Source of the DNA: Squalus acanthias
Taxonomy: Eukaryota
Assembly: GCA_030390025.1 (NCBI GenBank)
Contig: JASTWF010000034.1
Location: 558,001-622,000 of the forward strand
DNA: 64,000 bases
Direction: 5' to 3'
The notes beneath the pieces were generated by a model that did no database searches, had not been told where the DNA came from, and worked only from the letters and a program-made list of their open reading frames with translations. Of the stretch, positions 6,001-51,785 are shown one piece after another (positions within the stretch are counted from its first letter, which is position 1; the number at the start of each line of letters is the position of its first letter). The translations under genes and the position numbers were made by a program.

Positions 6001-8573
6001 CTGCAGCCACTGTTGCCACATTAGGAGGAGCAGTAGGGTGGGAAGGGCGTAAGTGCGCAGTGCGTGGAGGTCACCCGCGCTGCAGCCACTGGGGCCACAT
6101 TAGGAGGAGCAGTAGGGTGGGAAGGGGGGAAGTGCGCAGGGGATGGAGGTCACCCTTGCTGCAGCCAGTGGGACCACATTAGGAGGAGCAGTAGGGTGGG
6201 AAGGGGGGAAGTGCGCTGGGGATGGAGGTCACCCTTGCTGCAGCCAGTGGGGCCACATTAGGAGGAACAGCAGTTTGGGAAGGGGTGATGTGCGCAGGGG
6301 GTGGAGGTCACCCTTGCTGCAGCCAGTAGGGCCACATTACAGAGGAGCAGTAGGGTGGGAAGAGGGGAAGTGCGCAGGGGGTGGAGGTCACCCTTGCTGC
6401 AGCCACTGGGGCCACATTAGGAGGAGCAGTAGTGTGGGAAGGGGGGAAGTGCGCAGGGGATGGAGGTCACTCTCGCTGCAGCCACTGGGCCACATTAGGA
6501 GGAGCAGTCGGGTGGGAAGGGGGGGAAGTGCACAGGGGATTGAGGTCACCCTTGCTGCAGCCACTGGGGCCACATTAGGAGGAGCAGTAGGGTGGGAAGG
6601 GGGGAAGTGCGCAGGGGATGGAGGTCACACTTGCTGCAGCCACTGGGGCCACATTAGGAGGAGCGTTAGGGTGCGAAGTGCGGGGAAGTGCGCAGGGGAT
6701 GGAGGTCACCCTCGCTGCAGCCACTGGGGCCACATTAGGAGGAGCATTAGGGTGGGAAGGGGGGAAGTGCGCAGGGCATGGAGGTCACCCTTGCTGCAGC
6801 CACTGGGGGTACATTAGGAGGAGCAGTAGGGTGGGAAGGGGGAATGTGCGCAGGGGATGGAGGTCACCCTTGCTGCAGCCACTGGGGGCCACATTAGGAG
6901 GAGCATTAGGGTGGGAAGGGGGAAAGTGCGCAGGGGATGGAGTTCACCCTTGCTGCAGCCACTGGGGGCACATTAGGAGGAGCAGTAGGGTGGGAAGGGG
7001 GAAAGTGCGCAGGGGATGGAGGACACCCTTGCTGCAGCCACTGGGGCCACATTACAGAGGAGCAGTAGGGTGGGAAGAGGGGAGGTGGGCCGGGGGTGGA
7101 AGTCACCCTTGCTGCAGCCAGCGGGGCCATATTAGGAGGAGCAGTAGGGTGGGAAGGGGGGAAGTGCGCATGGGGTGGAGGTCACCTTTGCTGCAGCCAC
7201 TGGGGCCACATTCGGAGGAGCAGTAGAGTGGGAAGGTGGGAAGTGCGCAGGGGATGGAGGTCACCCTCGCTGCAGCCACTGTGGCCACATTACAGAGGAG
7301 CAGTAGGGTGGGAAGGGGGGATATGCGCAGGGGATGGATGTCACCCTCGCTGCAGCAAGTGGGTCCACATTACAGAAGAGCAGTAGGGAGTTAACGGGGG
7401 AAATGCGCAGGGGATGGAGGTCACCCTTGCTGCAGCCACTGGGGCCACATGAGGAGGAGCAGTTGGGTGGGAAGGGGGGAAGTGCGCAGGGGATGGAGGT
7501 CACCCTCGCTGCAGCCAGTGGGCCCACATTACAGAGGAGCAGTAGGGTGGGAAGGGGGAACCGCGCAGGGGATGGAGGTCACCCTCGCGGCAGCCACTGG
7601 TGCCACATTAGGAGGAGCAGTAGGGTGGGAAGGGGGTAAGTACGCAGGGGTTGGAGGTCACCCTCGCTGCAGCCACTGGGGCCACATTAGGAGGAGCAGT
7701 AGGGTGGGAAGGGGGGAAGTGCGCAGGGGATGGAGGTCACCCTTGCTGCAGCCGCTGGGGCCACATTACAGAGGAGCAGTAAGGTGGGAAGGGGGGAAGT
7801 GCGCAAGTGTTGGAGGTCACCCTTGCTGCAGCCACTGGGGCAACATTCGGTGTAGCAGAAGCGGGGGGGGAAGTCCGCAGGGGATGGAGGTCACCCTCGC
7901 TGCAGCCACTGGGACAACATTACAGAGGAGCAGTAGGGTGGGAAGGGGGGAAGTGCGCAGGGGGTGGAGGTCACACTTGCTGCAGCCACTCGGGCCACAT
8001 TAGTAGGAGCAGTAGGCTGGGAAGGGGGGAAGTGCGCAGGGGATGGACGTCACCCTCGCTGCAGCCACTGGGGCCACATGAGGAGAAGCAGCAGGGTGGG
8101 AAGGGTGTAAGTACGCAGGGGATGGAGGTCACCCTTGCTGCAGGCACTGGGGCCACATTACAGAGGAGCAGTAGGGTGGGAAGGGGGGAAGTGCGCAGTG
8201 GCTGGAGGTCACCCTTGCTGCAGTCACTGGGGCCACATGAGGAGGAGCAGTAGAGTGGGAAGGGGGGAAGTGTGCAGAGGGATGGAGGTCACCCTTGCTG
8301 CAGCCACTGGGGCCACATTACAGAGGAGCAGTAGGGTGGGAAGGGGGGAAGTGCGCAGAGGGATGGAGGTCACCCTCGCTGCAGCCACGGGGCCACATTA
8401 GGAGGAGCAGTAGGGTGGGAAGGGGGGATATGCGCAGGGGATGGAGGTCACCCTTGCTGCAGCCACTGGGGCCACATTACGAGGTGCAGTCGGGTGGGAA
8501 GGGGGGAAGTGCGCAGGGGATGGAGGTCACCCTTGCTGCCGCCAGTGGGCCACATTAGGAGGAGCAGTAGGGT
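1..8573. repeat. G-rich satellite, 79-80 bp monomer (~107 copies visible), with ~3-kb higher-order repeat; runs off the left edge
   Basis: Monomer ggggccacattaggaggagcagtagggtgggaaggggggaagtgcgcaggggatggaggtcacccttgctgcagccact. Near-identical ORF translations recur at offsets of 3238 (370 vs 3608) and 3398 (1782 vs 5180). Confidence 0.98.
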
Positions 8574-12420: not shown

Positions 12421-12569
12421 TCATTTCGCTTAAAAGTCTATCTACTTAAGCTGTAGATATGATGTTGGGTTAGTCTCCCCTTATCCCTACCATTCAATCA
12501 GTGACTGGCCCTTTGCCAGGCCCGCTGACTGTGGCCCCTCTCCCAGATTCCAGCCCCAGCTCTGTGCTG

Positions 12570-13085
12570 ACTGAGCTGCTCTCACCTGGGGACAGCGCGT
12601 CACAATCGGCCCCAGCGCACCTGAGCTGCTCACCAGACCCCGCACCCCTTGCTGCGCCGCCATTGGTTGGAGGACCCGCCGCCCGCTCGGTCCTCCAGCC
12701 CCGCCCCGCTCTTCCTATTGGTCCGAGCTCCCGTCAATCAGGTAGAGCCCCGGGATCACGTGCTCCAGTTCACTCCGTCCCCTCGCCACCCCGAGTGATG
12801 GATGCGGCTGAATCCGCTCCATTCGGTGTCCGGGGAGCTCCCGCCCGACTCTCGGGTTTGTATTTTACTTTATTTTCTCTCTCTCTCCGTCCCCACTCCC
12901 CGCCTAACCGCAAGCTAACTCGGTGCAGCAAACTCACTTTCCGTCGGTGACTCGGCCTCAACGGCCGCCCGTTCACCTTACCCAGGAGCCCCCGCGCGGT
13001 TGCCCCGGTGACCCCAGCGCGCAGGCGCAGCAGCGGCCGGATTGTTGGCCTGAGTTCTGCCTCCTGAGCATGCGCGGCGCCCAGC
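12570..13085. promoter_or_regulatory. CpG-rich promoter-like region with CCAAT/GC-box core paralogous to the 25.4-kb ZNF promoter; exon-1-like donor on minus strand
   Basis: 12662-12740 is the reverse complement of 25401-25478 (two CCAAT boxes, GC box, tggaggacc/ggtcctcca hairpin). Minus-strand cag|gtgagagcagctcag at ~12571-12588. NRF1-like gcatgcgc near 13068. Confidence 0.7.
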
Positions 13086-13099
13086 CGGTGACCTCATCA

Positions 13100-15685
13100 G
13101 AACAAAAGGACCTGGAGCAGGAGTGGGCCATTCGGGCCCTCGAGCCTGCTCCAACATTCAATAAGATCATGGCTCATCTTCCTCATCTCCACTTTCCTGC
13201 ACTATCCCCACATCCCTTGGTTCCCTTAATATTCAACAATCTATCGATCTCTGTCTTGAATATACTCAATGACTGAGTCTCCACAGCCCCCTGGGGTAGA
13301 GAATTCTAAAGATTCACCACCTCCTGAGTGAAGAAATTTCTCCTCATCTCAGTCCTAAATGGCCGACCCCTTATCCTGAGACTGTGACCCCTGGTTCTAG
13401 ACTCCCCAGCCAGGGGAAACATCCTCCCTGCATCTACCCTGTCAAGCCCTGTAAGAATTTTGTATGTTTCAAAGAGATCAATTCTCTTTTTTTAAAACTC
13501 TAGTGAATACAGGCCTAGTCTACTCAATCTCTCCTCATAAGACAATCCCCCCATCCCAGGAACCAGTCTGGTGAACCTTCGTTGCACTCCCTCTCTGGCA
13601 AGTATATCCTTCCTTAGGTAAGGAGACCAAAACTGTACACAATACTCCAGGTGTGGTCTCACCAGGGCCCTATATAATTGCAGTAAGACGTCTTTACTCT
13701 TATACTCAAATCCTCTTGTAATAAAGGCCAACATATCATTTGCTCTCCTAATTGCTTGCTGTACCTGCATGTTAACTTTCAGTGATTCCTGTACAACGAC
13801 ACCCAGGTCCCTCTGAACACCAACATTTCCCAATCTTTCACCATTTAAAAAATAGTCTGCTTTTCTATTTTTCTGACCAAGGTGGATAACTTCACATTTC
13901 TCCACATTATATTCCATTTGTCTTGTTCTTGCCCCACTCACTTAGCCTGTCTATTTCCCCTTGAAGCCTCTTTGCATCCTCCTCATAACTTACAGTCCCA
14001 CCCAGCTTTGTATCATCAGCAAACTTGGATATATTGGGCCGTATTTTGCGACCCCTACGGGTGCGTACGAGGTGCGCATGTGCCCGGAGGGGCTGCACAC
14101 GTGCCGGGTTTAGGCATGCGTAGCACATGCATTAAAACCCGGCACTTGCGATCTGTCAAGAATTCTCTTGACAGATCCGCCACATCCCCAGGAAAAGGGT
14201 GCTATTGGCCCAACCTCCGCCCGCTGAAAGGCCGTGGAATTCTTACGCCTGGTTTACCAGCATAAGAGTTTAAAAAATAGAAAAATAAAATTTTATCACT
14301 CATTTATACATTAAAAACCCTGTCAATAAGGGAAGTTTATTTTTAGCCCCATTGAAACATATACATTTTTTTCCAAAAAATTAAATTTTTGTTTAAAATA
14401 TTTAATTAAATGCCATTTTAATTAATTTTATATATGTAATGTTTATTTTAAATTTATTTCACGTGTTCGGGTGATTTTTTAGTCATTCCCACTCATACAT
14501 ATGACAGTTCTGTACAAATCATTGATGTAGATTGTGAATAGCTGAGGCCCAAGCACTGAACCTTGCAGTACCCCACTAGTTACAGCCTGTCAACCCGAAA
14601 ATGACCCGTTTATTCCTACTCTCTGTTTTCTGTCCGTTAACCAATCCTCAATCCATGCTAGTATATTACCCCCAATCCCATGAACCCTAATTTTGTTTAA
14701 TAACCTCTTGTGTGGGACTTTATCAAAGGCCTTCTGAAAATCCAAATACACCACATCCACTGGTTCCCCCTTATCTATTCTACTAGTTAGAACCTCAAAA
14801 AACTCTCAACAGATTTGTCAAACATGATTTCCCTTTCATAAATCCGTGTTGACTCTGCCCAATCCTATTATTATTTTCTAGTGCCCTGTTACCAGGTCCT
14901 TAATAATAGATTCTAGCATTTTCCCTACTACTGATGTCAGGCTAACTGGTCTGTAGTTCCCCGGTTTCTCTCTCCCTCCTTTCTTAAATAGTGGGGTTAC
15001 ATTTGCCACCTTCCAATCCGTGGGAACCGTTCTAGAATCAATGGCATTTTGGAGGATGAGAACCAATGCATCCACTATCTCTATAGCCACCTCTTTCAAA
15101 ACCGTAGGATGTAGGCCATCAGGTCCAGGGGATTTATCGGCTTTCAGTCCCATTAATTTCTCCAGTACTATTTTTTTTACTAATACTAATTTCTTTCAGT
15201 TCCTCATTCTCACCAGACCCGTGGCTCTCCAGTATTTCCGGGAGGTTTTTTGCATCTTCTTCCGTGAAGACAGACACAAAGTAGTTGTTTAATTTCTCTG
15301 CCATTTCCTTCTTCCCCATTATAATTTCTCCAATCTCAGCCTGTAAGGGACCCACATTTACTTTCGCTAATCTTTTCCTGTTTACATACCTAGAGAAGCT
15401 TTTACAGTCTGTTTTTATGTCTCTCGCTAGTTTACTCTCATTCTATTTACTCTTTCTTTATTCATTTCTTGGTCCTCCTTTACTGAATTCTAAAATCCTC
15501 CCAATCCTCAGGCTTACTGCTCTTTTTGGCAATATTATAAGCCTCTTCCTTTGATCTAATACTATCTTTAACTTCTCTTGTTAGCCACGATTGGACCACT
15601 TTTCCTGTGGGGCTTTTGTGCCTTAAAAAGAATGTATATTTGTTGTAAATTATATATTACTTCTTTAAATGCTAGCCATTGCTTT
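13100..15685 (-). mobile_element. CR1 LINE, 5'-truncated, interrupted by an insertion at 14036-14517
   Basis: 3' stem-loop tail at ~13100-13180; [34 protein letters not shown]. Confidence 0.93.
14036..14517. mobile_element. Unclassified non-LINE insertion (GC-rich then very AT-rich), possibly a partial MITE
   Basis: Interrupts CR1 RT between ...aaacttggatatatt and atcattgatgtag..., with loss of a short stretch of host sequence. No ORF; no clear TIR pair. Confidence 0.55.
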
Positions 15686-16519: not shown

Positions 16520-19500
16520 CATAGAATCATAGAAGATAGGAGCAGGCCATTCGGCCCCTCTAGCCTGCTCCGCCATTCAGTGCGATCATGGCTGATCATC
16601 CAAATTCAGTACCCTGTCCCTGCTTTCTCCCCATATCCCTTGATCCCTTTAGCCTTAAGAAATATATCCAACTCCTTCTTGAATCTATTTAATGAATTGG
16701 CCTCTACTGCCTTCTGTGGTAGAGAATTCCACAGGTTCACCACTCTCTGGGTGAAGAAATTCCTCCTCATTTCTGTCCTAAATGGCTTACCCCTTATCCT
16801 TAGACTGTGACCCCTGGTTCTGGACTCCCCGACCATCGGAACATCCTTCCTGCATCTAGTTTGTCCTGTCCTGTCAGAATTTTATAAGTTTCAATGAGAT
16901 CCCCTCTCATTCTTCTAAACTCCAGCGAGTATAAGTCCAATCGACCCAATCTCTCTTCATACGTCATTCCTGCCATCCCAGGTATCAGCCTTGTGAATCT
17001 TCGCTGAACTCCTTCCATGGCAAGAACATCCTTCCTCAGATAAGGCGACCAAAACTGCACACACTACTCAAGGTGTAGTCTCACTAAGGCCCTGTACAAC
17101 TGCAGCAAGACATCCTTGTTCCTGTACTCAAACCCTCTCGCTATGAAGGCCAACATACCATTTGCCTTCTTAACCGCCTGCTGCACCTGCATGCTTACCT
17201 TCAGCGACTGGTGCACAAGGGCACCCAGGTCTCGTTGCACTTCCCCTTCTCTCAATCTATTGCCATTCAGATAATAATCTGCCTTTCTGTTTTTGACACC
17301 AAAGTGGATAACCTCGCATTTATCCACGTTATATTGCATCTGCCACGCTTCTGCCCAATCACCCAACCTGTCCAAATCATCCTGGAGTTTCTCGGCATCC
17401 TCCTCGGAGCACACACGCCCACCCAGTTTTGTGTCGTCTGCAAACTTGGAGATATTACATCTAGTTCCCTTGTCTAGATCATTAATATATATTGTGAATA
17501 GCTGGGGTCCAAGGACCGATCCCTGCGGTACCCCACTAGTCACTGCCTGCCACTCGGAAAAAGACCCGTTTATTGCAACTCTTTGCTTTCTGTTTGCCAA
17601 CCAGTTCTCTATCCAAGTCAGTACCTTACCCCCACTCCCATGTGCCTTAACTTTACGCGCTAATCTCTTATGCGGGACCTTATCAAAAGCCTTTTGGAAG
17701 TCCAAATACACCACATCCACTGGTTCTCCCTTATCTATTTTACCAGTTACATCCTCAAAAAATTCCAGTAGATTAGTCAAGCATGATTTACCTTTTGTAA
17801 ATCCATGTTGACTTTGTCCAATCCTGTCACTGTTTTCCAAGTGCTCAGCTATTATATCTTTTCTAATGGACTCTAGCATTTTCCCCACTACCGATGTCAG
17901 GCTTACCGGTCTGTAATTCCCCGTTTTCTCTCTACCACCCTTTTTGAATAGTGGGGTAACATTAGCTACCCTCCAATCCATGGGTACTGTTCCAGATTCC
18001 ATCGAATGTTGGAAGATGATCAGCAATGCATCTACTATTTCTAGGGCCACTTCCTTAATTACCCTAGGATGTAGATTATCAGGCCCTGGGGATTTATCGG
18101 CCTTCAATTTCCCTAACACCATTTCCCTACAAATACTGATTTCTTTCAGTTCCTCCCTTTCATCAGACCCTATGTTCCCCGACATCTCTGGGAGGTTATT
18201 TGTGTCCTCCTTTGTGAAGACAGAACCAAAATATGTATTTAATTGGTCTGACATTTCTTTGTTCCCCATTATAAGTTCCCCTGATTCTGACTGCAAGGGA
18301 CCTATGCTTGATTTCACTAATCTTTTTCTCTTCACATATCTATAAAAGCTTTTACAGTCAGTTTTTATGTTCCCTGCAAGCTTACTCTCGTATTCTATTT
18401 TCCCCTTCTTAATTAATCCCTTTGTCCTCCTTTGTTGAATCTTAAACTGCTCCCAATCCACAGGGTTACTGCTTTTTCTGGCCAATTTATATGCCCTCTC
18501 CTTGGATCTTATGCTATCCCTAATTTCCCTTGTTAGCCACGGTTGAGTCACCCTTTTTGTTTTATTCTTATGCCAAACTGGGATGAACAAATTCTGTAGT
18601 TCGTCCATGCTGTCTTTGAATGTTTGCCATTGCCTATCCACCGTCAACCCTTTGAGTGACATTCCCCAATCAATCCTACCCAACTCGCACCTCATACCAT
18701 CGTAGTTTCCTTTATTTAAATTCAGGACCCTAGTATCTGAGTCAACTACTTCACTCTCCATCCTAATGAAGAATTCTATCATATTATGATCGCTCCGACC
18801 CAAGGGGCCTCGCACAACAAGATTGCTAATTAATCCTTTCTCATTGCATAATACCCAGTCTAAGATGGCCTGATCTCTGGTTGGTTCCTTGACATATTGG
18901 TCCAGGAAACCATCCCGTAAACACTCCAGGAATTCCTCCTCCATAGTATTGTTACTAATTTGGTTAGCCCAATCTATATGTAGATTAAAGTCACCCATGA
19001 TGACTGCTGTGCCCTTATTGCACGCTTCCCAAATTTCCCTTTTAATGCCATCCCCAACATCCGTATTACTGTTTGGGGGTCTATATATAACTCCCACTAA
19101 CGTTTTCTGCCCCTTCTTATTTCTCAGTTTAACCCATACAGATTCCACATCATCAGAGCTAATATCCTTCCTTTCAATTGTGTTAATCCCCTCTTTAACC
19201 AGCAATGCTACACCACCTACCTTTCCTTTTTGCCTATCTTTCCTGAATATTGAGTACCCCTAGATGTTGAGTTCCCAGCCTTGGCCACCCTGGAGCCATG
19301 TTTCGGTAATCCCAATCAAATCATATTCATTTACCTCTATTTGCGCAGCTAATTCATCCACCTTGTTCCGAATGCTCCTTGCATTAAGACACAAAGCCTT
19401 CAGGCTTGTTTTTTTAACGCTCTTAGACCTATTAGAATTAGTATTTACTGTGGCCATGTTTGATTTAAACCATTGTTTTCTCTGACTGCCACTTTTGTTT

Positions 19501-20782
19501 TTCTCCTTCCTATCTTTTGCTTTTATCCTCGTTTCCCTTTCCTCTGTCTCCCTGCTCAGGTTCCCAACCCCCTGCCACTTTAGTTTAAACCCTCCCCCAG
19601 AGCATTAGCAAACACTCCCCCGAGGACATCGGTCCCGGCCCTGCCCAGGTGTACACCGTCCGGTTTGTACTGGTCCCACCTCTCCCAGAACCGGTTCCAA
19701 TGCCCCAGGAATTTGAATCCCTCCCCCTTGCACCATTCCTCTAGCCACGTATTCATTTGAAATATCCTTCTATTTCTACTCTGACTCGCACGTGGCACTG
19801 GTAGCAATCCTGAGATTACTACCTTTGAGGTCCTATTTTTTAATTTACCTCCTAACTCCCTATATTCTGCTTTTAGGACCTCATCCCGTTTTATTACCTA
19901 TATCGTTGGTACCTATATGCACCATGACAACTGGCTGTTCACCCTCCCCTTCCAAAATGCTCTGTAGCCGCTCTGAGACATCCTTGACCCTTGCACCAGG
20001 GAGGCAACATACCATCCTGGAGTCTCCATTGCGGCCACAGAAACGCCTATCTATTCCCCTTACAATAGAATCCCCTATCACTATAGCTCTCCCACTCTTT
20101 TTCCTCCCATCCTGTGCAGCAGAACCACCTACGGTGCTAGGAAGTTGGCTGCTGCTGTCTTCCCCTGATACGCCATCTCCCTCAACAATATCCAAAGCGG
20201 TATATCTGTTTGAGAGGGGGATGGCCACAGGGGACCCCTGCACTACCTGCCTGCGCCTATTACTCTGCCTGGTGGTCACCCATTCCCTTCCTGCCTGTAC
20301 ACCCTTTACCTGCGGTGTGACCGACTCCCTAAACATGCTATCCACGATGTCTTCAGCATCGCGAATGCTCCAGTATGCATCCATCCGCAGCTCCAGCGCC
20401 GCAATGCGGTCTGTCAGTAGCTGCAGCTGGATACATCTCCCGCACACATGGTTGTCAGGGACACAGGAAGTGTCCCTGATTTCCCACATAGTGCAGGAAG
20501 AGCATGTCACAGCACCAAGCTATCCTGCCAAGACTTACCCTTTAATTAGAATTAAATTAAAATTAAATGGATCCCACCAATTACACTGGAATTAAGTGAT
20601 ATACTCAAGGGCCCTTGCTTAACAGTAGTCCCCACTACACAAAGAGACCGTAGAAACCACAAAATTTAAGTTTAGAAAAATTAAGAAAACACTCACCAAC
20701 CAATCACTTACCTGCTTTTTGGTGACGTCACACTACGAATACTTTTTGCTTCCCTCTCCCGGAACCTGGATTTGTAAACCGC
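16520..20782 (-). mobile_element. Full-length CR1 LINE (family A): ORF1 zinc finger/esterase and ORF2 APE-RT, a few disabling mutations
   Basis: ORF1 19881-20510 and 19580-19807 (CSSC..CGRC, GDSIVR). ORF2 17064-19205 (713 aa, FADD), with stop at ~19260 and frameshifts near 17062 and 16835. 3' tail at 16520. Confidence 0.97.
17064..19205 (-). pseudogene. CR1 ORF2 (endonuclease-reverse transcriptase), longest open segment
   Basis: [35 protein letters not shown] motifs. Confidence 0.93.
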
Positions 20783-22305
20783 CTCGGGGCTCACCTTAAG
20801 TACCGCCCCCCGCCCCCTCGGAGCTCACCTTAAGTACCGCCCCCCGCCCCCTCGGGGCTCATCTTAAGTACCGCCCCTCGCCGCCTCGGGGCTCACCTTA
20901 AGTACCGCCCCCCGCCCCCTCGGGGCTCACCTTAAGTACCGCCCCCCGCCCCCTCGGGGCTCACCTTAAGTACCGCCCCCGCCCCCTCGGGGCTCATCTT
21001 AAGTACCGCCCCTCGCCGCCTCGGGGCTCACCTTAAGTACCGCCCCCTCGGGGCTCACCTTAAGTACCGCAGCTTGCCCCCTCGGGGCTCACCTTAAGTA
21101 CCGCCCCTCGCCCCCTCGGGGCTCACCTTAAGTACCGCCCCTCGCCGCCTCGGGGCTCACCTTAAGTACCGCCCCTCGCCCCCTCGGGGCTCACCTTAAG
21201 TACCGCCCCTCGCCCCCTCGGGGCTCACCTTAAGTACCGCCCCTCGCCCCCTCGGGGCTCACCTTAAGTACCGCCCCTCGCCCCCTTGGGGCTCACCTTA
21301 AGTACCGCCCCTCGCCCCCTCGGGGCTCACCTTAAGTACCGCCCCTCGCCCCCTCGGGGCTCACCTTAAGTACCGCCCCTCGCCCCCTCGGGGCTCACCT
21401 TAAGTACCGCAGCTTGCCCCCTCGGGGCTCACCTTAAGTACCGCCCCTCGCCCCCTCGGGGCTCACCTTAAGTACCGCCCCCCGCCCCCTCGGGGCTCAC
21501 CTTAAGTACCGCCCCTCGCCCCCTCGGGGCTCACCTTAAGTACCGCAGCTTGCCCCCTCGGGGCTCACCTTAAGTACCGCCCCTCGCCCCCTCGGGGCTC
21601 ACCTTAAGTACCGCCCCTCGCCCCCTCGGGGCTCACCTTAAGTACCGCCCCTCGCCCCCTCGGGGCTCACCTTAAGTACCGCCCCTCGCCCCCTCGGGGC
21701 TCACCTTAAATACCGCCCCTCGCCCCCTCGGGGCTCACCTTAAGTACCGCCCCTCGCCCCCTCGGGGCTCACCTTAAGTACCGCCCCTCGCCCCCTCGGG
21801 GCTCACCTTAAGTACCGCCCCTCACCCCCTCGGGGCTCACCTTAAATACCGCCCCTCGCCCCCTCGGGGCTCACCTTAAGTACCGCCCCTCGCCCCCTCG
21901 GGGCTCACCTTAAGTACCGCCCCTCGCCCCCTCGGGGCTCACCTTATGTACCGCCCCTCGCCCGCTCGGGGCTCACCTTAAGTACCGCCCCTCGCCCCCT
22001 CGGGGCTCACCTTAAGTACCGCGCCTCGCCCCCTCGGGGCTCACCTTAAGTACCGCCCCTCGCCCCCTCGGGGCTCACCTTAAGTACCGCAGCTTGCACC
22101 CTCGGGGCTCACCTTAAGTACCGCCCCTCGCCCCCTCGGGGCTCACCTTAAGTACCGCCCCTCGCCGCCTCGGGGCTCACCTTAAGTACCGCAGCTTGCC
22201 CCCTCGGGGCTCACCTTAAGTACCGCCCCTCGCCCCCTCGGGGCTCACCTTAAGTACCGCCCCTCGCCCCCTTGGGGCTCACCTTAAGTATCGCCCCTCG
22301 CCGCC
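20783..22305. repeat. 34-bp minisatellite (~45 copies) at the 5' end of the full-length CR1
   Basis: Unit cttaagtaccgcccctcgccccctcggggctcac, with recurrent variant gcagcttg. Confidence 0.97.
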
Positions 22306-22339
22306 TCTGTTCCCTCGCAGGTCCGCCCCTCGCCGCTGT

Positions 22340-23479
22340 GTCCAACCATGTGATGTCATAGTCCGTGTCCACAGTCTTCAGCTTTTCCACGGAGAAGAAG
22401 CCATCCACTATCTCAATCCCGCAAAAAAGACCGAACACTCAAATTTTCTGCTACTTGCTGTTACTGCTCACAGGACCCAGCCATCAAATAGTCATTATTC
22501 CTTACCGATATTACTTTGTTTTGTCTTTTATCTTCCTTTTTTTCCCACTTTTAACCGTTCACATTTCCATCTTGTAACCGCTCAGGCGCCATGCTACAGA
22601 TGGAAACAGTTTGTCTTTCCTCCGCCACCAATATGGCGACGCATAAACCGGTCCCATGACCAAGAAAAAGCCTCACAGCTGCCGCCAGGCAGAGCAGATG
22701 CTGGGCCGCTGGAACTCATTCAGGCCCGAGACCATTCTGCAACTTTCAGAACCAGTGCAGCAATACTCACCAACCGCATCTCCCGACTCCACCTCTACCG
22801 ACCAGCCGCCCCGCCCTGGGCCCCCCGCCTGGGGCTCTCCGTGCTGGGCCCCCCGCCTGGGGCTCTCCGTGCTGGGCCCCCCGCCTGGGGCTCTCCGTGC
22901 TGGGCCCCCCGCCTGGGGCTCTCCGTGCTGGGCCCCCCGCCTGGGGCTCTCCGTGCTGGGCCCCCCGCCTGGGGCTCTCCGTGCTGGGCCCCCCGCCTGG
23001 GGCTCTCCGTGCTGGGCCCCCCGCCTGGGGCTCTCCGTGCTGGGCCCCCCGCCTGGGGCTCTCCGTGCTGGGCCCCCCGCCTGGGGCTCTCCGTGCTGGG
23101 CCCCCCGCCTGGGGCTCTCCGTGCTGGGCCCCCCGCCTGGGGCTCTCCGTGCTGGGCCCCCCGCCTGGGGCTCTCCGTGCTGGGCCCCCCGCCTGGGGCT
23201 CTCCGTGCTGGGCCCCCCGCCTGGGGCTCTCCGTGCTGGGCCTCCCGCCTCGGCCACCCTCCTCTGGGTCTTCCACCCTGGGCCTTCTGCACCGGGCCCT
23301 CCGCACCGGCATTCCCCGCGAGCAGCCGGGGTGTGGAGCAGCCCGTTCACACAGCACTGAGCTGAGAATCTCGCAGCATGTCTCTCTCTCTCTCTCTCTC
23401 TCTCTGTCCTCCCCGGGTGTTTGTGAAGCGGATAATGTTCACTGTTTTAATAATGGGGCCTGGGGCCGCACTCGGGGTG
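22340..23479. repeat. Tandem segmental duplicate (left copy) of 24536-25288
   Basis: Colinear similarity from tgtc(c/g)aaccatg through ...gcactcggggtg; both copies translate MTKKKxHSCRQAEQMLGRWNSFRPETILQL. Confidence 0.9.
22818..23250. repeat. 28-bp GC-rich minisatellite (~15 near-perfect copies)
   Basis: Unit gggccccccgcctggggctctccgtgct. Confidence 0.97.
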
Positions 23480-23834
23480 AATCTTTTTATTCAAATCAAT
23501 AATACTTATACAACTCATGAATTACATAGTAAATCCATTACATTCATCCATCACAGTAAAACATAAAGCCTTAAAAACAGCCTTATAGTTAATATAAATG
23601 CAATGATTAATTTTACAAATAATCAATAATGTTTACAGTACAAATACCCTTAAACAATACCACACAACTTTTTAGATTTAAAATAATAAATCTCACAGTT
23701 AACTCCACATTAAACAAACCATTTCAACACCAGTGTACAAACACATAGCACCATCACAATCCAATTAAATGCCACAGATAACATTTATTCCAATAAACCA
23801 AGAAAACCTGTTTTACGCCAGTCCTACTAGCATT

Positions 23835-24290
23835 GTTCGTTCGATCATTCATTCAATTGTTCGTTCGTTCATTCAAGCGTTCGTTCGATCGATCGAGCGT
23901 AAGTTCCATTATGTATGTCTGAATGCGTGCGTGCGTATCAGTTGTCTAAGTGCGCGCCTGCGTGCGTTCGCTTGAATCGTTCGCCACGCGATCATTCGTT
24001 CGATCGAGTGTAAGTTCCAATGTGCATGCTTGCGTTCGCTCGAATCGTTCGTTCGACCACTACCTCCCAAGAGGTCGTTCGTTCGATCGAGTGTAAGTTC
24101 CATTATGTATGTCTGAATGCGTGCGTGCGTAGCATAGTCTAAGTGCACGCCTGCGTGCATTCGCTCGAATCGTTCGTCCTATCACTGCACAAGTGATCAT
24201 TCGTTCGATCGAGTGTAAGTTCCAATATGCATGAATGCGTTCGCTCGAATCGTTCGTCCATTCGTTCACTCGAGCGTCCGTTCGTTCAAT
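23835..24290. repeat. CpG/TCGA-rich complex repeat with four copies of a cgatcgagtgtaagttcca core
   Basis: gtaagttcc cores at 23899, 24010, 24093 and 24215 with alternating downstream flanks. Confidence 0.8.
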
Positions 24291-24535
24291 AATTTACCAA
24301 TGTTAATTTACTTTATCTTTTCAGCCACACCCAACACTAGACAATAACCTCAAAGTAAATTCCTACATAACCACCAATACATCACCATGTGCAAATTCCC
24401 ACAGTCCTTATCAGAAAATCAATTGAGTTTCAAGTAAACTGCTTTCAAACAGAAAACCTGAAACCTTCCCAACAAAACAATTAAATACCAGTTCTACGCC
24501 AGTCCTTTTGGCAATCCATTAACGAATATCATTTG

Positions 24536-25288
24536 ATGTCGAACCATGTAAAGTCATAGTCCTTGTCCACAGTCTTCAGCCCTTCCACGGAAAAAGAAGC
24601 CATCCACTGCCTGAAATCCCGTAAAAAGACCGAACACTCAAATCTTCTTCAGCTTGCTGTTATCGCTCACAGGACCCAACCATCAAAGAATACTCATCAT
24701 TCCTTACTGATATTACTTTGCTCTGTCTTTTACTCTCCTTTTATTTTCCGTCTTTTAACCATTCACATTTTCCATCTTGTAACCGCTCACGCGCCACATT
24801 ACAGATGGAAACAGTTTGTCTTTCCTTCACCAATATGGCGACGCATAAACCGGTCCCATGACCAAGAAAAAGTTTCACAGCTGCCGCCAGGCAGAGCAGA
24901 TGCTGGGCCGCTGGAATTCATTCAGGCCCGAAACCATTCTGCAACTTTTAGAACCAGTGCAGCAATGCTCACCAACCACATCTCCCGACTCCACCTCTGC
25001 TGACCAGCCGCCCCGCCCTGGGCCCCCCGCCTGGGGCTCTCCGTGCTGGGCCCCCCGCTCAGGCCACTCTCCTCCGGGTCTTCCACCTTGGGCCTTCTGC
25101 ACCGGGCCCTCCGCACCGGCATTCCCCGCAAGCAGCCGGGGTGTGGCGCTCACCCGTTCACACAGCACCGAGTTGAGCTGAGAATCTCGCAGCCTCAGCC
25201 TCTGCCTCTCTCTGTCCTCCCCCGGGTGTTTGTGAAGCGGATAATGTTGAGTGTTTTAATAATGGGGCCTGGGACCGCACTCGGGGTG
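24536..25288. repeat. Tandem segmental duplicate (right copy) of 22340-23479
   Basis: As for the left copy, but only ~1.5 copies of the 28-bp motif (25019-25058). Confidence 0.9.
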
Positions 25289-25666
25289 TGTGCAGCCCGC
25301 GTCCCCCCGGGGTTTATTAACCCGCTCCCTGAGCTCTCTCACCTGATGTGTCAGCGGCTGCTGCAAAGGTCCGCGCATGCTCAGCTCACACTGCCCGGGT
25401 GATTGACGGGGGCTCGGACCAATAGGAAGAGCGGGGCGGGACTGGAGGACCGAGCGGGCGGCGGGTCCTCCAACCAATCGGAGTGTGTGAGGGGCGGGGC
25501 TTGACCTTTAAACCTGAACAACAGAAGGTGAGCTGAGCATGCGCGGACCTTGGCAGCAGCCGCTGACACATCAGGTGAGAGAGCTCAGGGAGCGGGTTAA
25601 TAAACCCCGGGGGGACGCGGGCTGCACACACCCCGAGTGCGGCCCCAGGCCCCATTATTAAAACAC
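25251..25666. promoter_or_regulatory. Promoter core flanked by 139-bp inverted repeats, each with a splice donor (putative bidirectional ZNF promoter)
   Basis: Arms 25251-25389 and 25528-25666 differ at 2 of 139 positions. The 138-bp spacer has CCAAT boxes (25419, 25474) and GC boxes. Donor cag|gtgaga at 25575(+) and 25342(-). NRF1-like gcatgcgc in each arm; ETS-like ccggaagtg at ~25722. Confidence 0.8.
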
Positions 25667-26619
25667 CCCCGGTTCCAGGGTTGGAATCCCCATGTACAGT
25701 CCCAGGGCTGGAATCCGACACCCGGAAGTGGAATTTCAGCCTCAATGTTACAAGTTTCATCGGTTACAGGCTGGAGAGAGGAATCATTCAAACTGACCCA
25801 GAGCTGTGTGATTGGTTCAGTCTGTGTATCACTGACGGGCCCTTTTAAATTTGAGTGGTCAGGTATTCAAATTCCCAGTAATCTAATCCCGGATATAAAA
25901 GAGGGGAGAGCTGTGTTTAAATCAAAGAGTCTCCTTGGAGATTCTCTGAGTGAAGGACCTGGTCGGCTTGAAACAGCTGAAAAATCGGTTAAAAATGTCC
26001 AATGAGCAGTTTTTGACCAATATCGACTCCCACAGGGATGGGGAATTCTAGAATAAGGAAGGAACCGGTCAGGATTTGAAAGGTCTTTACAAAGGATTCG
26101 AGGGACTCCTACATTTGGGATCTTTCTTTATTTCATCCACTTGAGGAGTTCGATAACAGGCTTCCTCCTGTGAATGTCGAGCTGGATTAGTGAGCTGTGA
26201 CGGGTTTACTTGTTCATCTTTTGTTAAATACATTTGGTGAGTGAATTTAAATTTAAAACCAGGTTTGCAGGCGTGATGCTCTATTCACACATTAAAAGTG
26301 AGAGAGATGCTGTGGGACACATGCTAAGTCCAGTAGCTGAAAATGATTAACAGTCTGGGTTTTGTGTTTAGTGATCACCATGTACAGTCCCAGGGTTAGA
26401 ATCCCCACGTGTGAAGGAACATTGTATAGAAACTAGAATTGTCTGTTCTGAATTTCTATCCTGTACTTACAATGATGACTTTTGTAAACTCCTTTTACAG
26501 GCTATTAGAAGGGGAGGATTTACAGACGGGAAACTCTAACCAAACATCACGTCAAGATCTGAGAGTCACTCAATTCATCAGGACCTGAATATCATCAGCC
26601 TTTGAATGTGGAAGGAGAA

Positions 26620-26862
26620 ATGTTTGTCTGTTCTGTCTGTGGGAAAAGATTTCAAAGATCAGTGTGACTGGAAAAGCACTGAGACACACACACCCGAGTG
26701 AGAGTGTTCCAGTGCACTGACTGTGGAAAGAGCTTTAACCAGTTACACAGCCTGAAAAAACATCGCACCATTCACAGCGGGGAGAAACCGTACACGTGTT
26801 CTGTGTGTGGACGAGGCTTCAACTGATCGTCCAACCAGGAGAGACACAAGGACACCCGCACC
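26620..26862 (+). pseudogene. Three degenerate C2H2 fingers in frame with the ZNF ORF, broken by TGA at 26665, 26680 and 26824
   Basis: [78 protein letters not shown]. Confidence 0.85.
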
Positions 26863-27591
26863 ACGGAGAAACCGTGGGAATGTGGGGACTGTGGGAAAGG
26901 ATTCAGTTCCCCATCCCACCTGGAAACTCATCGACGCAGTCACAGCGGGGAGAGGCCGTTCACCTGCTCCGTGTGTGGAAAGGGATTCGCACAGTCATCC
27001 AACCTGCTGAGACACCGGCGAGTTCACACTGGGGAGAGGCCGTTCACCTGCTCCGTGTGTGGGAAGGGATTCACTAATTCAGCCCACCTTCTGAGACACC
27101 AGCGAGTTCATACTGAGGAGAGACCTTTTAAATGCTCTGACTGTGCGAACTTCTTTAAAAGCTCTGAGGAACTGATTCAACACCAGCGAGTTCACACTGA
27201 CGATAAACCATTCAGTTGCTCTCACTGTGGGAAAAGGTTCAGGCAGTCATTCAATCTCATTGTACACAAGCACACTCACACTGGGGAGAGACCGTTCACC
27301 TGCTCCGTGTGTGGGAAGGGATTCACTTGTTCATCCACCCTGCTGACACACCAACGAATTCACACTGGGGGGAGGTCGTTCACCTGCTCCGTGTGTGGGA
27401 AGGGTTTCTCTCGATCGTACAGCCTGCTGACACACCAACGAGTTCACACTGGGGAGAGGCCGTTCACCTGCTCCGTGTGTGGGATGGGTTTCTTTCGATC
27501 ATCCAACCTGCTGAGACACCAGCGAGTTCACAAGCGACTGCAGGAGTTGGATTCTGATGTTATTGCTGCTGTTAATCACATCCAGGACTGA
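26863..27591 (+). CDS. KRAB-less tandem C2H2 zinc-finger protein, 8 intact fingers; start uncertain (ACG at 26863), possibly a pseudogene
   Basis: Open frame [14 protein letters not shown]...[16 protein letters not shown]...[24 protein letters not shown]. Acceptor ttttacag| at 26500; AATAAA at 27630. Confidence 0.85.
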
Positions 27592-38504: not shown

Positions 38505-38925
38505 CTCTCTTCTCTACTCCTTTCAAAGTTTTACCATTTCATGTATATTTATTAGATTTTAGGAGGAAGAAAAATGTATCACCTCCCATTTCTCTGCGTT
38601 AATCTTCATCTGCCATCTACCTGCCCCATTTATAACCTGTGTATTCACTGAAGTCACTGACAGGCCTTTCACAGTTGGCCATTGTTCCTTTTTTGGTGTC
38701 ATCGAGAGACTTTGGTCTCGTGCCCCATAAACCCAAGCCCAGAACATTTCTCTATATTGAGAAGAGCAATGGTGCCAACACTGACCCTGGGGGACACCAC
38801 TGTTCACATCCCTCCAGTCTGAAGAACATCCATTAACCACAAATCTGTTCTCTGCCCTTTACCCAACTTCCTATCCGCGCTGCCCCACTCCCTTTAATAC
38901 CCTGAGCCTTAATTTGATCAACAAG
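38505..38925 (-). mobile_element. Old degraded CR1 RT fragment
   Basis: VNGCSSDWRDVNSGVPQG; WQMKINAEKWEVIHF. Confidence 0.75.
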
Positions 38926-38939
38926 CCTCCGGCCCTCAC

Positions 38940-39267
38940 CCGTGTTGTTGATGAGGAGCAGCCGCTCCGGAGGTCCGTCCTGGTCCTGGCCACCGGTGAC
39001 CGAGCTCAGCACCCGCTGCACCTCCTCTGCCTCACTGAGCTTGGCTTCCACACGGCTCACCCTCAACCCGCCGCCCAGCAGAGCCGCTGCTTCCAGCACC
39101 TGGCGCTCCACCTCCCGCAGGTTATCCCCAGACTTGGCCATCAGCACCAGGTGGGAGCCAGCCCGCAGCCTTGGAGCCAGCACCAGGGACAGCCTCTTCC
39201 CCAGACCCCTGGAGGCGCCCATGATGATGCACAGGCTCTTGCCGAGGTCCCTCAGTCCTCCATCCAT
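38940..39267 (-). pseudogene. SPR: Sepiapterin reductase exon 1 (SDR Rossmann-fold N-terminus), orphan and probably pseudogenic
   Basis: MDGGLRDLGKSLCIIMGASRGLGKRLSLVLAPRLRAGSHLVLMAK...LRVSRVEAKLS...ERLLLINNT(G) aligns by eye with vertebrate SPR (GRAVCLLTGASRGFG...RLLLINNAG). Ends in a phase-1 donor g|gtgagg at 38940/38939. Confidence 0.85.
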
Positions 39268-39384
39268 CCTCGCCACTTCCTCTTGCATCAGATCCGACTC
39301 CTGCTGATCTGTATCTTGTCAGCACCAGCCATCTGCACTTTGATCAGATTGGGCAACTGGCCAATATTGTTGCAGTCTAGAATT

Positions 39385-40535: not shown

Positions 40536-43500
40536 CCCCTCTAAACCTCCTGCCCCTTACCTTGAAACTATGCCCCCTGGTTATTGACTCCTCTACTAAG
40601 GGGAAAAGTTCCTTTCTATCTACCCTATCGATGCCCCTCATAATTTTGTACACCTCAATCAGGCCCCCCTCAGCCTTCTCTGCTCTAAGGAAAACAACCC
40701 CAGCCTGTCCAGTCTCTCTTCATAGCTGAAGCGCTCCAGCCCAGGTAACATCCTGGTGAATCTCCTCTGCACCCTCTCCAATGCAATCACATCCTTCCTA
40801 TAGTGTGGCGACCAGAACTGCACACAGTATTCCAGCTGTGGCTGAACTAGCGTTTTGTACAGCTCCATCATAACCTCCCTGCTCTGATATTCTATGCCTC
40901 GGCTAATGAAGGCAAGTATCCCATATGCCTTTTTAACCACCTTATCTACCTGTCCTGCTGCCTTCAGGGATCTATGTACATGTACACTAAGGTCCCTCTG
41001 ATCCTCTCTCCTTCCTAGGGTCCTACCATTCATTGTGTATTCCCTTGCCTTGTTAGTCCTCCCAAAATGTATGACCTCACACTTTTCAGGGTTAAATTCC
41101 ATTTGCCACTGTTCTGCCCATCTAACCAACCCGTCTATATCGTCCTGATAGGGCCTGATAATCTACATCCTAGGGTACTTAAGGAAGTGGCCCTAGAAAT
41201 AGTAGATGCATTGCTGGTCATCTTCCAAAATTCTATAGACTCTGGAACAGTTCCCATGGATTGGAGGGTAGCTAATGTAACCCCACTATTTAAAAAAGGT
41301 GGGAGAGAGAACACGGGGAATTATAGACCGGTAAGCCTGACATCGGTAGTGGGGAAAATGCTAGAGTCCATTATAAAAGATGTAATAGCAGAGCACTTGA
41401 AAACAGTGACAGGATCGGACAAAGTCAACATGGATTTACAAAAGGTAAATCATGCTTGACTAATCTACTGGAATTTTTTGAGGATGTAACTGGTAGAATA
41501 GATAAGGGAGAACCAGTGGATGTGGTGTATTTGGACTTTCAGAAGGCTTTCGATAAGGTCCCGCATAAGAGATTGGTGTGCAAAGTTAAAGCACATGGGA
41601 TTGGGGGTAAGGCACTGACTTGGATAGAGAACTGGTTGGCAGACAGGAAGCAAAGAGTTGGAATAAACGGGTCTTTTTCCGAGTGGCAGGCAGTGACTAG
41701 TGGGGTACTGCAGGGATCGGTGCTCGGACCCCAGTTATTCACAATATATATTAATGATCTAGACGAGGGAACTAGATGTAATATCTCCAAGTTTGCAGCC
41801 GACACAAAGCTGGGTAGGCGTGTGTGTTGTGAGGAGGATGCAGAGAAACTCCAGTATGATTTGGACAAGTTGGGTGATTGGGCAGATGCATGGCAGATGC
41901 AGTATAATGTGGATAAATGCGAGGTTATCCACTTTGGTGGCAAAAACAGGAAGGCAGATTATTATCTGAACGGCAATAGATTGGGAAAAGGGGAAGTGCA
42001 ACGAGACCTGGGAGTCCTTGTGCACCAGTTGTTTAAGGTAAGCATGCAGGTGCAGCAGGCGGTTAAGAAGGCAAATGGTATGTTGGCCTTCATAGCGAGA
42101 GGATTCGAGTACAGGAGCAAGGATGTCTTGCTGCAGTTGTACAGGGCCTTGGTGAGACCACACCTTGAGTATTGTGTGCAGTTTTGGTCACCTTATCTGA
42201 GGAAAGATGTTCTTGCCATGGAGGGAGTGCAGCGAAGATTCACAAGGCTGATACCTGGGATGGCAGGAATGACGTATGAAGAGAGATTGGGACGATTGGG
42301 CTTGTATTCACTAGAGTTTAGAAGAATGAGAGGGGATCTCATTGAAACTTATAAAATTCTAACAGGACTAGACAGACTAGATGCAGGGAGGATGTTCCCG
42401 ATGGCAGGGGAGTCCAGAACCAGGGGTCACAGTCTAAGGATAAGGGGTAAGCCATTTAGGACTGAGATGAGGAGGAATTTCTTCACCCAGAGAGTGGTGA
42501 ACCTGTGGAATTCTCTACCACAGAAGGCAGTTGAGGCCAATTCATTAAATATATTCATGAAGGAGTTAGATATATTTCTTAAGGCTAAAGGGATCAAGGG
42601 ATATGGGGAGAAGGCAGGGACAGGGTACTGAATTTGGATGATCAGCCATGATCTCATTAAATGGCAGAGCACGCTAGAGGGGCCGAATGGCCTACTCCTG
42701 CTCCTATCTTCTATGTTTCTATGTCCTGTAGCCTAAGGATTCCCTCCTCGCTATTTACCACTCCACCAATTTTCGTGTCATCTGCAAACTTACTGATCAT
42801 ACGTCCTACATTCATATCTAAATCATTAATGTACACTACAAACAGCAAAGGACCCAGCACCGATCCCTGCGGTACACCACTGGACACAGGCTTCCAGTCA
42901 CAAAAACAACATTCGACCATCACCCTCTGCCTCCTGCCACTAAGCCAATTTTGGATCCAATGTGCCAAATTGCCCTGGATCCCATGGGCTCTTACCTTCT
43001 TGACAAGTCTCCCATGCGGGACTTTGTCAAAAGCCTTACTGAAGTCCATGTACACTACATCAACTGCACTACCCTCATCCACACACCTAGTCACCCCCTC
43101 GAAAAATTCAATCAAATTGGTTAGACATGATCTCCCCCTGACAAAGCCATGCTGACTATCCTTGATTAACCCTTGCCTCTCCAAGTGGAGACTAATTCTG
43201 TCCCTCAGAATTTTTCCCAATAATTTCCCTACCACTGATGTTAGGCTCACTGGCCTGTAATCCCTGGTTTATCCCTACTACACTTCTTGAATAATGTTAC
43301 TACGTTAGCTGTTCTCCAGTCCTCTGGCACCTCCCCTGTGGCCAGAGAGGTTCTGAAAATTTGTGTCAGAGCCCCTGCAATCTCCTCCCTTGCCTCACAC
43401 AGCAGCCTGGGATACATCTCGTCAGGGCCTGGGGATTTATCCACTTTTAAGCCCACTAAAACCAGCAGTACCTCCTCCCTCTCGATGCCAATTTGTTCAA

Positions 43501-47089: not shown

Positions 47090-47440
47090 TGCACATCGCG
47101 TGTGAATACGGCCTATCTCCAGCAGCAGGGGCGCAGTGCGCAGGCGCAGGAAGTGCTGGTTCCCGGAGACCGCCTTCCTGCGCGGAGCATGCGCGGTGCG
47201 GCTCGAGGAAACTGAGCGGGGATGAGCGCGGCCTCAGCAACACCGAGTGCGCGTCTCAGGCCCCGAATCAGAGCGGCCGGGCCCGGCACCAGGAAACCCA
47301 GGGTGCAGCGCCTCCCCCAGACAGGAGAAACCACAACTGGCATCGACACAGCAGAGCCGGCTTGTATCAGGGCGGGCGCTGGATGCGGAAGTCGGTCCCT
47401 GGCCGCCTGTGTCGGTCTTTTTGTTGCTTCAGTTTGAGCT
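47090..47440. promoter_or_regulatory. CpG-rich promoter-like region
   Basis: Dense CpG; NRF1-like tgcgcaggcgca and gcatgcgc (as near 13.02-13.07 kb and in the 25.4-kb arms); ETS-like cggaagt. Confidence 0.55.
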
Positions 47441-51654: not shown

Positions 51655-51785
51655 GAAAGTAATGTTCTGTATAAATGCGAATTGTCTGTTCTGAATTTCT
51701 ATCCTGTACTTCCAGTGATGACTTTTGTAAACTCTTTTTACAGGGGATTAGAAGGGGAGGATTTACTGACCAAACAAACTCCACA
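51655..51785 (+). pseudogene. Relic ZNF intron acceptor plus ~40 nt of the ZNF exon
   Basis: gaattgtctgttctgaatttctatcctgtact...tttgtaaactctttttacag|gggattagaaggggaggattta matches 26436-26522. Confidence 0.8.

Follow-up and report, generated by a model that had tools for sequence, protein, structure and literature searches.

A 416-base inverted repeat within the 64-kb window (a term used here for the whole stretch of DNA analysed) is probably a passive composite, in which a first-exon/promoter head that is common to non-LTR retroelement leaders and to a zinc-finger (ZNF) subfamily occurs twice around one core; since the left head leads into a leader that is shared with a CR1-type LINE, the locus is likely not a switch. 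If true, this reading would be a case of LINE leaders and a growing zinc-finger family exchanging promoters in cartilaginous fish, and would account for the previously unexplained unit to the left of the repeat. The parts are of known kinds, and the ZNF copy is probably dead. Coordinates are collected in Table 1.

Self-comparison of the 64-kb window bore out the sequence-only reading of 139-bp inverted arms, 25251-25389 and 25528-25666, that are identical at 137/139 positions in reverse complement, and their identity ends abruptly on both sides of a 138-bp spacer. Among the 11 near-spaced inverted pairs of the window, this is the only one with arms less than 2.5 kb apart, at least 98% identical and longer than 40 bp, and another of the 11 involves a third, 37-bp copy of this arm. 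Each arm carries, as had been claimed, an outward unit consisting of a motif (GCATGCGC at 25537 and its reverse form GCGCATGC at 25373) that is NRF1-like, and of a CAG/GTGAG splice donor, cut between 25574 and 25575 on the plus strand and between 25343 and 25342 on the minus strand. The hexamers AATAAA and ATTAAA lie about 25 and 83 nt behind each donor. The arms differ at 25274/25643 and 25366/25551, and the two non-matching letters belong to the left arm, because a contig of the public sequencing run X6 agrees with 25546-25658 of the right arm at 0 differences. No target-site duplication (TSD) was found at the outer ends of the inverted repeat. A reading of the arm as an LTR was rejected, as the donor precedes AATAAA and neither a terminal repeat pair nor a primer-binding site was seen by eye.

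The spacer holds the elements previously ascribed to it, namely two CCAAT boxes (25419 and 25474, both on the plus strand), GC boxes (25434 and 25492) and a 9-bp hairpin, TGGAGGACC-N12-GGTCCTCCA, at 25443-25472. Its sole TATA-like TTTAAA (25507-25512) is likewise on the plus strand, and BLAST of the spacer against itself returned no reverse match. Because CCAAT and TTTAAA are confined to the plus strand, the core is directional; the proposed mirror symmetry of the cassette therefore applies to the arms and not to the spacer between them. Across 25201-25650 the CpG observed/expected ratio is 0.73-0.74 and the GC content 0.64-0.65, which places the core region among CpG islands with CCAAT-, GC- and NRF1-type motifs. 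The axis of the hairpin (25457.5) lies 1 nt from that of the inverted repeat (25458.5). A hairpin of at least 9 bp was equally near the centre in 2 of 5000 mononucleotide shuffles, and occurred anywhere in 101 of the 5000. The DNA fold of 25370-25547 (z -5.5) adds nothing beyond the inverted repeat. The idea that the hairpin is the centre of a full palindrome, now decayed, was rejected, since the 53-55 nt on its two sides are not mirror images.

Table 1. Features of the inverted-repeat locus and of related elements in the 64-kb window.
Feature	Coordinates	Strand	Remarks
Second core copy, followed by a different exon-like segment and a CAG/GTGAG donor (12581-12588)	12560-12740	-	adjoins the ORF1 remnant of a CR1-type LINE downstream; without inverted arm
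CR1-type LINE	16520-20779	-	leader with donor 20707, ORF1 remnant, endonuclease and reverse transcriptase frame 17064-19259, short-repeat tail near 16520
34-bp CpG-rich minisatellite, 45 copies	20779-22336	-	between leader copy A and the LINE body
Leader L, copy A	22339-23479	-	first 37 bp identical to the outer part of the right arm; expanded 28-bp minisatellite 22816-23250
Body X, non-coding	23480-24536	-	internal degenerate repeats of ~200 bp; AT-rich 3' end with AATAAA 23491; multi-copy
Leader L, copy B	24537-25250	-	non-coding; identity to copy A 87%; the repeat unit ends inside the arm, at 25288
Left arm	25251-25389	-	47-nt exon-1-like segment 25389-25343; donor GT 25342; AATAAA 25318; ATTAAA 25260; 2 positions differ from the right arm
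Promoter-like core in CpG island, multi-copy module	25390-25527	+	rests on motif positions, the copy at 12740-12662 and run X8 contig 28
Right arm	25528-25666	+	first exon 25528-25574 (putative 5' end), donor GT 25575, start of intron 1
Remainder of ZNF intron 1	25667-26500	+	short high-copy repeat (25667-25716, 26374-26410) split by a lower-copy insert of ~660 bp (25717-26373); acceptor AG 26499-26500
C2H2 zinc-finger exon	26501-27591	+	broken leader fingers with two in-frame TGA; 8-finger open frame 26827-27591

The core also occurs without the arms. A second copy at 12740-12662 (minus strand) is identical at 77/79 positions (97%) and contains the identical hairpin, and it is because of this arm-less copy that we regard the hairpin as a native feature of the core. 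Contigs from the sequencing runs show the core in further settings: X8 contig 28 follows 25397-25503 of the core with 197 unlike letters, that is, another right flank; X3 contig 12 has 17 left-arm bases and the core followed by 28 unlike letters; and in X3 contig 13 the core is followed by 14 bases of the right arm. A splice donor lies just behind a CCAAT/GC promoter in all four of the CR1-associated or ZNF leaders that were inspected (12581, 20707, 25572 and, by eye, ~58310). The CR1-type leaders at 12581, 20707 and ~58310 are otherwise mutually unlike, and two of them carry tandem monomers (34 bp and 78 bp). Behind the 12.7-kb core, a further CpG-island segment (12740-13105) has a GCATGCGC of its own at 13068 and, near 12980, a donor-like site on the minus strand, and is cut at ~13105 by the end of a LINE, so that promoter modules appear stacked there. 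Exact patterns from the core, the arm and the leader gave 0 matches in viral and metagenome contigs, and Rfam at gathering thresholds gave 0 matches in the 64-kb window. No paper on the core/arm/leader module was found in the literature searched, the coverage of which was incomplete.

To the right of the core, one contig of the RNA-like run X15 (depth 115, short side 20 nt, from another organism) has a joint 25571>26498 which, with the GT..AG cut shifted by +3, is exactly 25574>26501. This supports, at the family level, the right arm being a working first exon that is spliced to the ZNF exon. Copies of the intron that lack the ~660-bp insert are represented by X3 joints 25711>26373 and 25712>26374, which skip 661 nt. 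The insert (25717-26373) is near-identical in organisms A, C and F; a TATA-like GGATATAAAAG lies near 25891, and the insert may be a fragment resembling a solo LTR. Among the 120 matches listed for the ZNF exon, the highest identities are 59-67%, to shark and ray ZNFs, which makes a cartilaginous fish the probable source. Two fingers upstream of the open frame carry the TGA stops, and an ACG stands at 26863 where the Mustelus (P0024) and Heterodontus (P0104) proteins have Met, although P0106 has Thr too. In the spliced message the first in-frame AUG is found only at 27484, i.e., there is none before the last finger, and this ZNF copy is probably non-coding. Relative to its relatives, its broken leader shows a small frameshift at 26550-26570 (loose ends at 26562 in X3, X6 and X15). 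Orphan ZNF acceptor cassettes without a finger exon occur at 51679-51770 (plus strand, 93%) and 45649-45589 (minus strand, 90%).

The left side is organised differently from what had been supposed. The minus-strand AATAAA claimed near 23490 was confirmed at 23491, but the 23.5-25.2 kb unit that it was thought to end is in fact two units: a leader of about 750 bp, 24537-25288, repeats 22339-23479 in direct orientation at 87% identity, and 23480-24536 is the only part without a second copy in the window. The order on the minus strand is thus arm, leader L (to 24537), body X (24536-23480), a second L (23479-22339), the 34-bp minisatellite and the CR1-type LINE, and segment 23443-23479 of leader copy A matches the arm at 37/37 positions. 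Unit L-X is without coding capacity. Pfam matched only two ZNF pieces among 19 ORF pieces and nothing in L or X; on 12 L/X frames with stops read through as unspecified residues, the best E-value was 0.055. Synonymous and non-synonymous counts between L copies A and B favoured no frame, no homolog of the 126-aa minus-strand frame was found among longer proteins (0 of 545 candidates), and phmmer of the 147-aa plus-strand frame gave 0 matches. A suspected likeness of L/X to the C-terminus of Tx1 ORF2 was dropped, as it received no support from the profile and homolog searches. Although it has AATAAA 23491, the L-X copy has no poly(A) or simple-repeat tail and no TSD, and the 3' tail of X matches no other element inside the 64-kb window.

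An acceptor filter of 11/15 pyrimidines, which on the plus side finds only the true acceptor AG 26499-26500, returned no leftward acceptor of that strength on the minus strand of 25342-22340 (~3 kb); weaker candidates, with 10/15 pyrimidines, are present at 24881 and 24611. No minus-strand splice joint was seen among the joints listed (15 of 47), a weak negative as contigs show presence only, and no ZNF linker was found on the minus strand of the 64-kb window.

Further to the left, Pfam RVT_1 and Exo_endo_phos were matched on 17064-19256. Esterase-type ORF1 remnants, 82% and 59% alike, stand in a chain to a GDSL-positive ORF1, and esterase-type ORF1 is linked to the CR1 clade. The elements at 16.5-20.8 kb and 11-12.7 kb are called CR1-type by their architecture, without a tree. 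LINE copies at 16538-18087 and 41150-42699 are 93-95% identical, inverted and about 23-25 kb apart, and flank the whole locus.

Public sequencing runs show how widely these modules are dispersed. Part of 23480-26800 was found in 20 of 22 runs, 18 of which hold 0.33-0.56 of the sampled words (six organisms and one unlabelled row). Four of the 22 (X3, X6, X8 and X15) were aligned to 23410-26800 in 30 bins, and all 30 bins were covered in all four runs, mostly at at least 95% identity (9722, 661, 1700 and 1476 contigs; organisms A, A, F and C). Since many paralogous contigs cover every bin in all four runs, the core, arms, L, X and intron are all repeats. None of the 22 runs is catalogued as RNA, a point that argues neither way. 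By the depth of the ZNF exon against that of the high-copy intron, X15 (247755/451) and X6 (17774/399) behave as RNA, and X3 (449473/279564) and X8 (21992/23159) as DNA. Contig depth equals neither copy number nor expression, and contigs carry no strand or start sites; hence, the depth ratios and the 3' gradient are to be read as hints. Depth over X and L drops away from the AATAAA end (Spearman -0.69 in X3 and -0.82 in X8, 15 bins), significantly so in X6 as well and not in X15 (p 0.25), which hints at a pattern such as 5'-truncated retroposition would give.

The same contigs bear on how the modules are linked. L and X are spanned by colinear contigs, internally deleted L-X copies are seen in X3 (23887>24992) and X8 (23896>24972), and linkage of the arm to L in other organisms is indicated by a joint 25204>25668, on opposite strands, in X15 and X8. 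Among the pieces listed (32 of 13744), none spans an arm-core junction with 31 nt on each side. Depths in X8 are 2004-2285 for the bins of arm and core and on average 1773 for the leader bins, which fits a core-arm-L unit but also a two-armed core.

The near-identity of the arms had been taken to imply a recent fold-back duplication or gene conversion. This does not follow, as non-palindromic copies are just as alike (77/79 for the core and 37/37 for the arm segment), and arm identity alone therefore cannot date a fold-back. In L, X, the intron and the exon, about 1.0-1.4% of the sites in the window depart from the letter that most contigs carry (40 listed of 103 sites). For independent family copies at 1.2% each, or at the 77/79 rate, two or fewer differences in 139 bp have a P of about 0.3, whereas copies at 3% divergence each would be expected to show more (P 0.01). 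None of the 40 variant sites listed of the 103 falls in the arms (P about 0.04), which possibly hints at selection or conversion acting on them.

A sequence of events consistent with these data may be proposed. Factors of the NF-Y, Sp and NRF1 types would open the CpG island, with firing that is predicted to be mainly rightward, because both CCAAT and TTTAAA point right, and weaker leftward. By analogy with U1 control of promoter directionality as set out in PMC4085477, U1 snRNP at the donor may mask the two poly(A) hexamers behind it in either direction. The rightward product would be a spliced, probably untranslatable ZNF RNA. Leftward transcription would yield an L-X RNA that is not spliced and stops at AATAAA 23491, the left head likely being the 5' end of a retroelement RNA; a LINE enzyme would copy this unspliced form and truncate it at the 5' end. 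The back-to-back join of the two heads is likely the outcome of template switching or recombination between members of the family at a short native dyad, for which the basis is that 14-17 arm bases border other copies of the core and that the core hairpin is coaxial with the arms. The joined heads would then have been carried along by block duplication, the event having occurred either once here or in the founder of the subfamily.

Other origins of the arrangement were weighed against the passive composite. The locus might be a head-to-head pair of ZNF-family genes on a bidirectional promoter, the left intron of which was invaded by X and CR1 while its finger exon was lost or moved, with arms that are alike by common descent and local conversion. 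We rate this as unlikely, though it has several points in its favour: the arm serves as a first exon for the ZNF acceptor, RNA-like contigs (loose ends in X6 and X15) continue the arm flank at 25220 into other sequence, and the orphan acceptor cassettes show turnover of such genes. However, the minus strand of the window is without a ZNF linker, L is repeated before both X and the LINE in the manner of a retroelement leader, the core precedes a CR1 element at 12.7 kb, and the depth of the X15 exon-1 bin (about 1024, against 76900 at the start of the ZNF exon) weakly hints at a minority first exon. On the sequence-only reading, one core would launch a pair of spliced transcripts that share their first exon, and the core would be flipped through recombination of the two arms; such a flip would tune which side is strong. 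The rightward half of this proposal stands at the family level on the single X15 contig, but the spliced leftward twin is absent among the joints listed (15 of 47) and finds no acceptor matching the true one within 3 kb. The flip itself would fit with an NRF1-like motif and donor being kept in both arms, with a directional core for which a flip would matter, with the coaxial hairpin and with the two weaker acceptors; moreover, the forward direction of the core points into the CR1 element at 12.7 kb and away from L-CR1 here, as one past flip would leave it. Nevertheless, arms of 139 bp are shorter than efficient homologous recombination in vertebrates would call for, a ZNF copy without AUG leaves little to switch, and no recombinase frame was seen by eye among the 98 ORFs of at least 120 aa in the window (with Pfam run on six non-local ORFs), although a recombinase could act in trans. 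Altogether, we consider a flipping core to be quite improbable.

A fold-back artefact of assembly would be conceivable in so repeat-dense a region next to an 8.5-kb satellite, and no listed contig bridges all the junctions. The arms differ at two sites, however, and each continues into a flank of its own that is typical of the family, an independent repeat of the left continuation is present at 23443-23479, and the two X3 contigs described above attach 17 nt of the left arm and 14 nt of the right arm to the core; such an artefact is accordingly very unlikely. Size and inverted termini would suit a MITE or another non-autonomous DNA transposon with 139-bp terminal inverted repeats, and yet the core is found without arms elsewhere, the outer left end is no element boundary (homology to copy A passes through it), and at the right end a deletion between two AAACAC repeats seems to have taken place. 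With no TSD found and both arms running on into family-typical flanks, the earlier judgement that this is not a simple MITE holds, and a transposon of this kind can hardly be the explanation.

A bolder reading of the two-armed arrangement may also be put forward, if only as a long shot. The two-armed cassette would be family-wide, with one core and identical U1-protected first exons co-transcribing a zinc-finger gene together with a retroelement, either L-X or L-CR1, such that retroelement activity would induce a candidate repressor family, while an occasional arm-to-arm inversion would swap the strong side. The coaxial hairpin, the variant-poor arms and the opposite orientation of the core relative to the CR1 element at 12.7 kb would fit such a cassette. 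Were many copies to be two-armed, with an intact ZNF on one side and an active retroelement on the other, they would give the arms race between transposons and zinc fingers a directly testable physical connection beyond tetrapods and teleosts.

Several known systems share features with the passive composite that we favour. Vertebrate bidirectional CpG-island promoters (PMC4730256 and PMC3583895) rely on NF-Y/CCAAT, Sp1 and NRF1 and are usually TATA-poor; the locus resembles them in its CpG island, CCAAT and GC boxes and NRF1-like motifs between outward exon/donor units less than 1 kb apart, and also in that upstream repeats supply the new divergent unit. It differs in having two first exons that duplicate one another, in the dispersed-repeat nature of the entire promoter and in the directionality of the core, divergent initiation here being putative. 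The recruitment of 5'UTRs and promoters by LINEs, with monomeric leaders, is described for L1 of primates, rodents and lizard (PMC5381506), and a swapped-in CpG-rich leader with tandem monomers before a LINE is likewise seen here (the 34-bp array, L, and the core at 12.7 kb). That system is L1 and not CR1, however, and the head at our locus is common to a host ZNF subfamily, so that capture in either direction is possible.

Regarding the left unit, PMC4494074 treats target-specific LINEs of the Tx1 clade and their non-coding partners (SINEU/Tx1-Mar of crocodilians, and R2-like dependence on host promoters). L-X is similar as a non-coding unit with a poly(A) signal, in tandem to a repeated leader and plausibly transcribed from a flanking promoter; unlike the Tx1 partners, it shows no Tx1 ORF, TSD or shared 3' tail in the window. 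On the right side, the likeness is to tandem C2H2 ZNF expansions, such as mammalian KZNF clusters and zebrafish FiNZ-ZNFs (PMC10547256, which does not mention sharks under the terms searched), in that a very large, repeat-embedded poly-finger family has dead copies and shared promoter types. In contrast to those families, no KRAB or FiNZ exon was seen, and the ZNF copy here is without a start codon. Finally, U1/poly(A)-site control of promoter directionality (PMC4085477) is matched by the poly(A) hexamers that stand directly behind a 5' splice site in each arm; such control is normally asymmetric, whereas the duplicated head here would give both directions the same U1 site.

A number of minor features were noted elsewhere in the window. 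A 79-bp satellite occupies 2-8573 in about 108 copies, with a higher-order repetition of period about 3.2-3.4 kb. A CpG island at 47100-47400 has GCATGCGC and is weakly similar to the arm (local score 63, the highest among shuffles being 46); by eye, it resembles the loose ends at 25220 in X6 and X15, and is possibly an older head of the same family. The ORF listing also includes an open frame at 38833-39318 on the minus strand, which by eye resembles the first exon of a short-chain dehydrogenase, sepiapterin-reductase-like.
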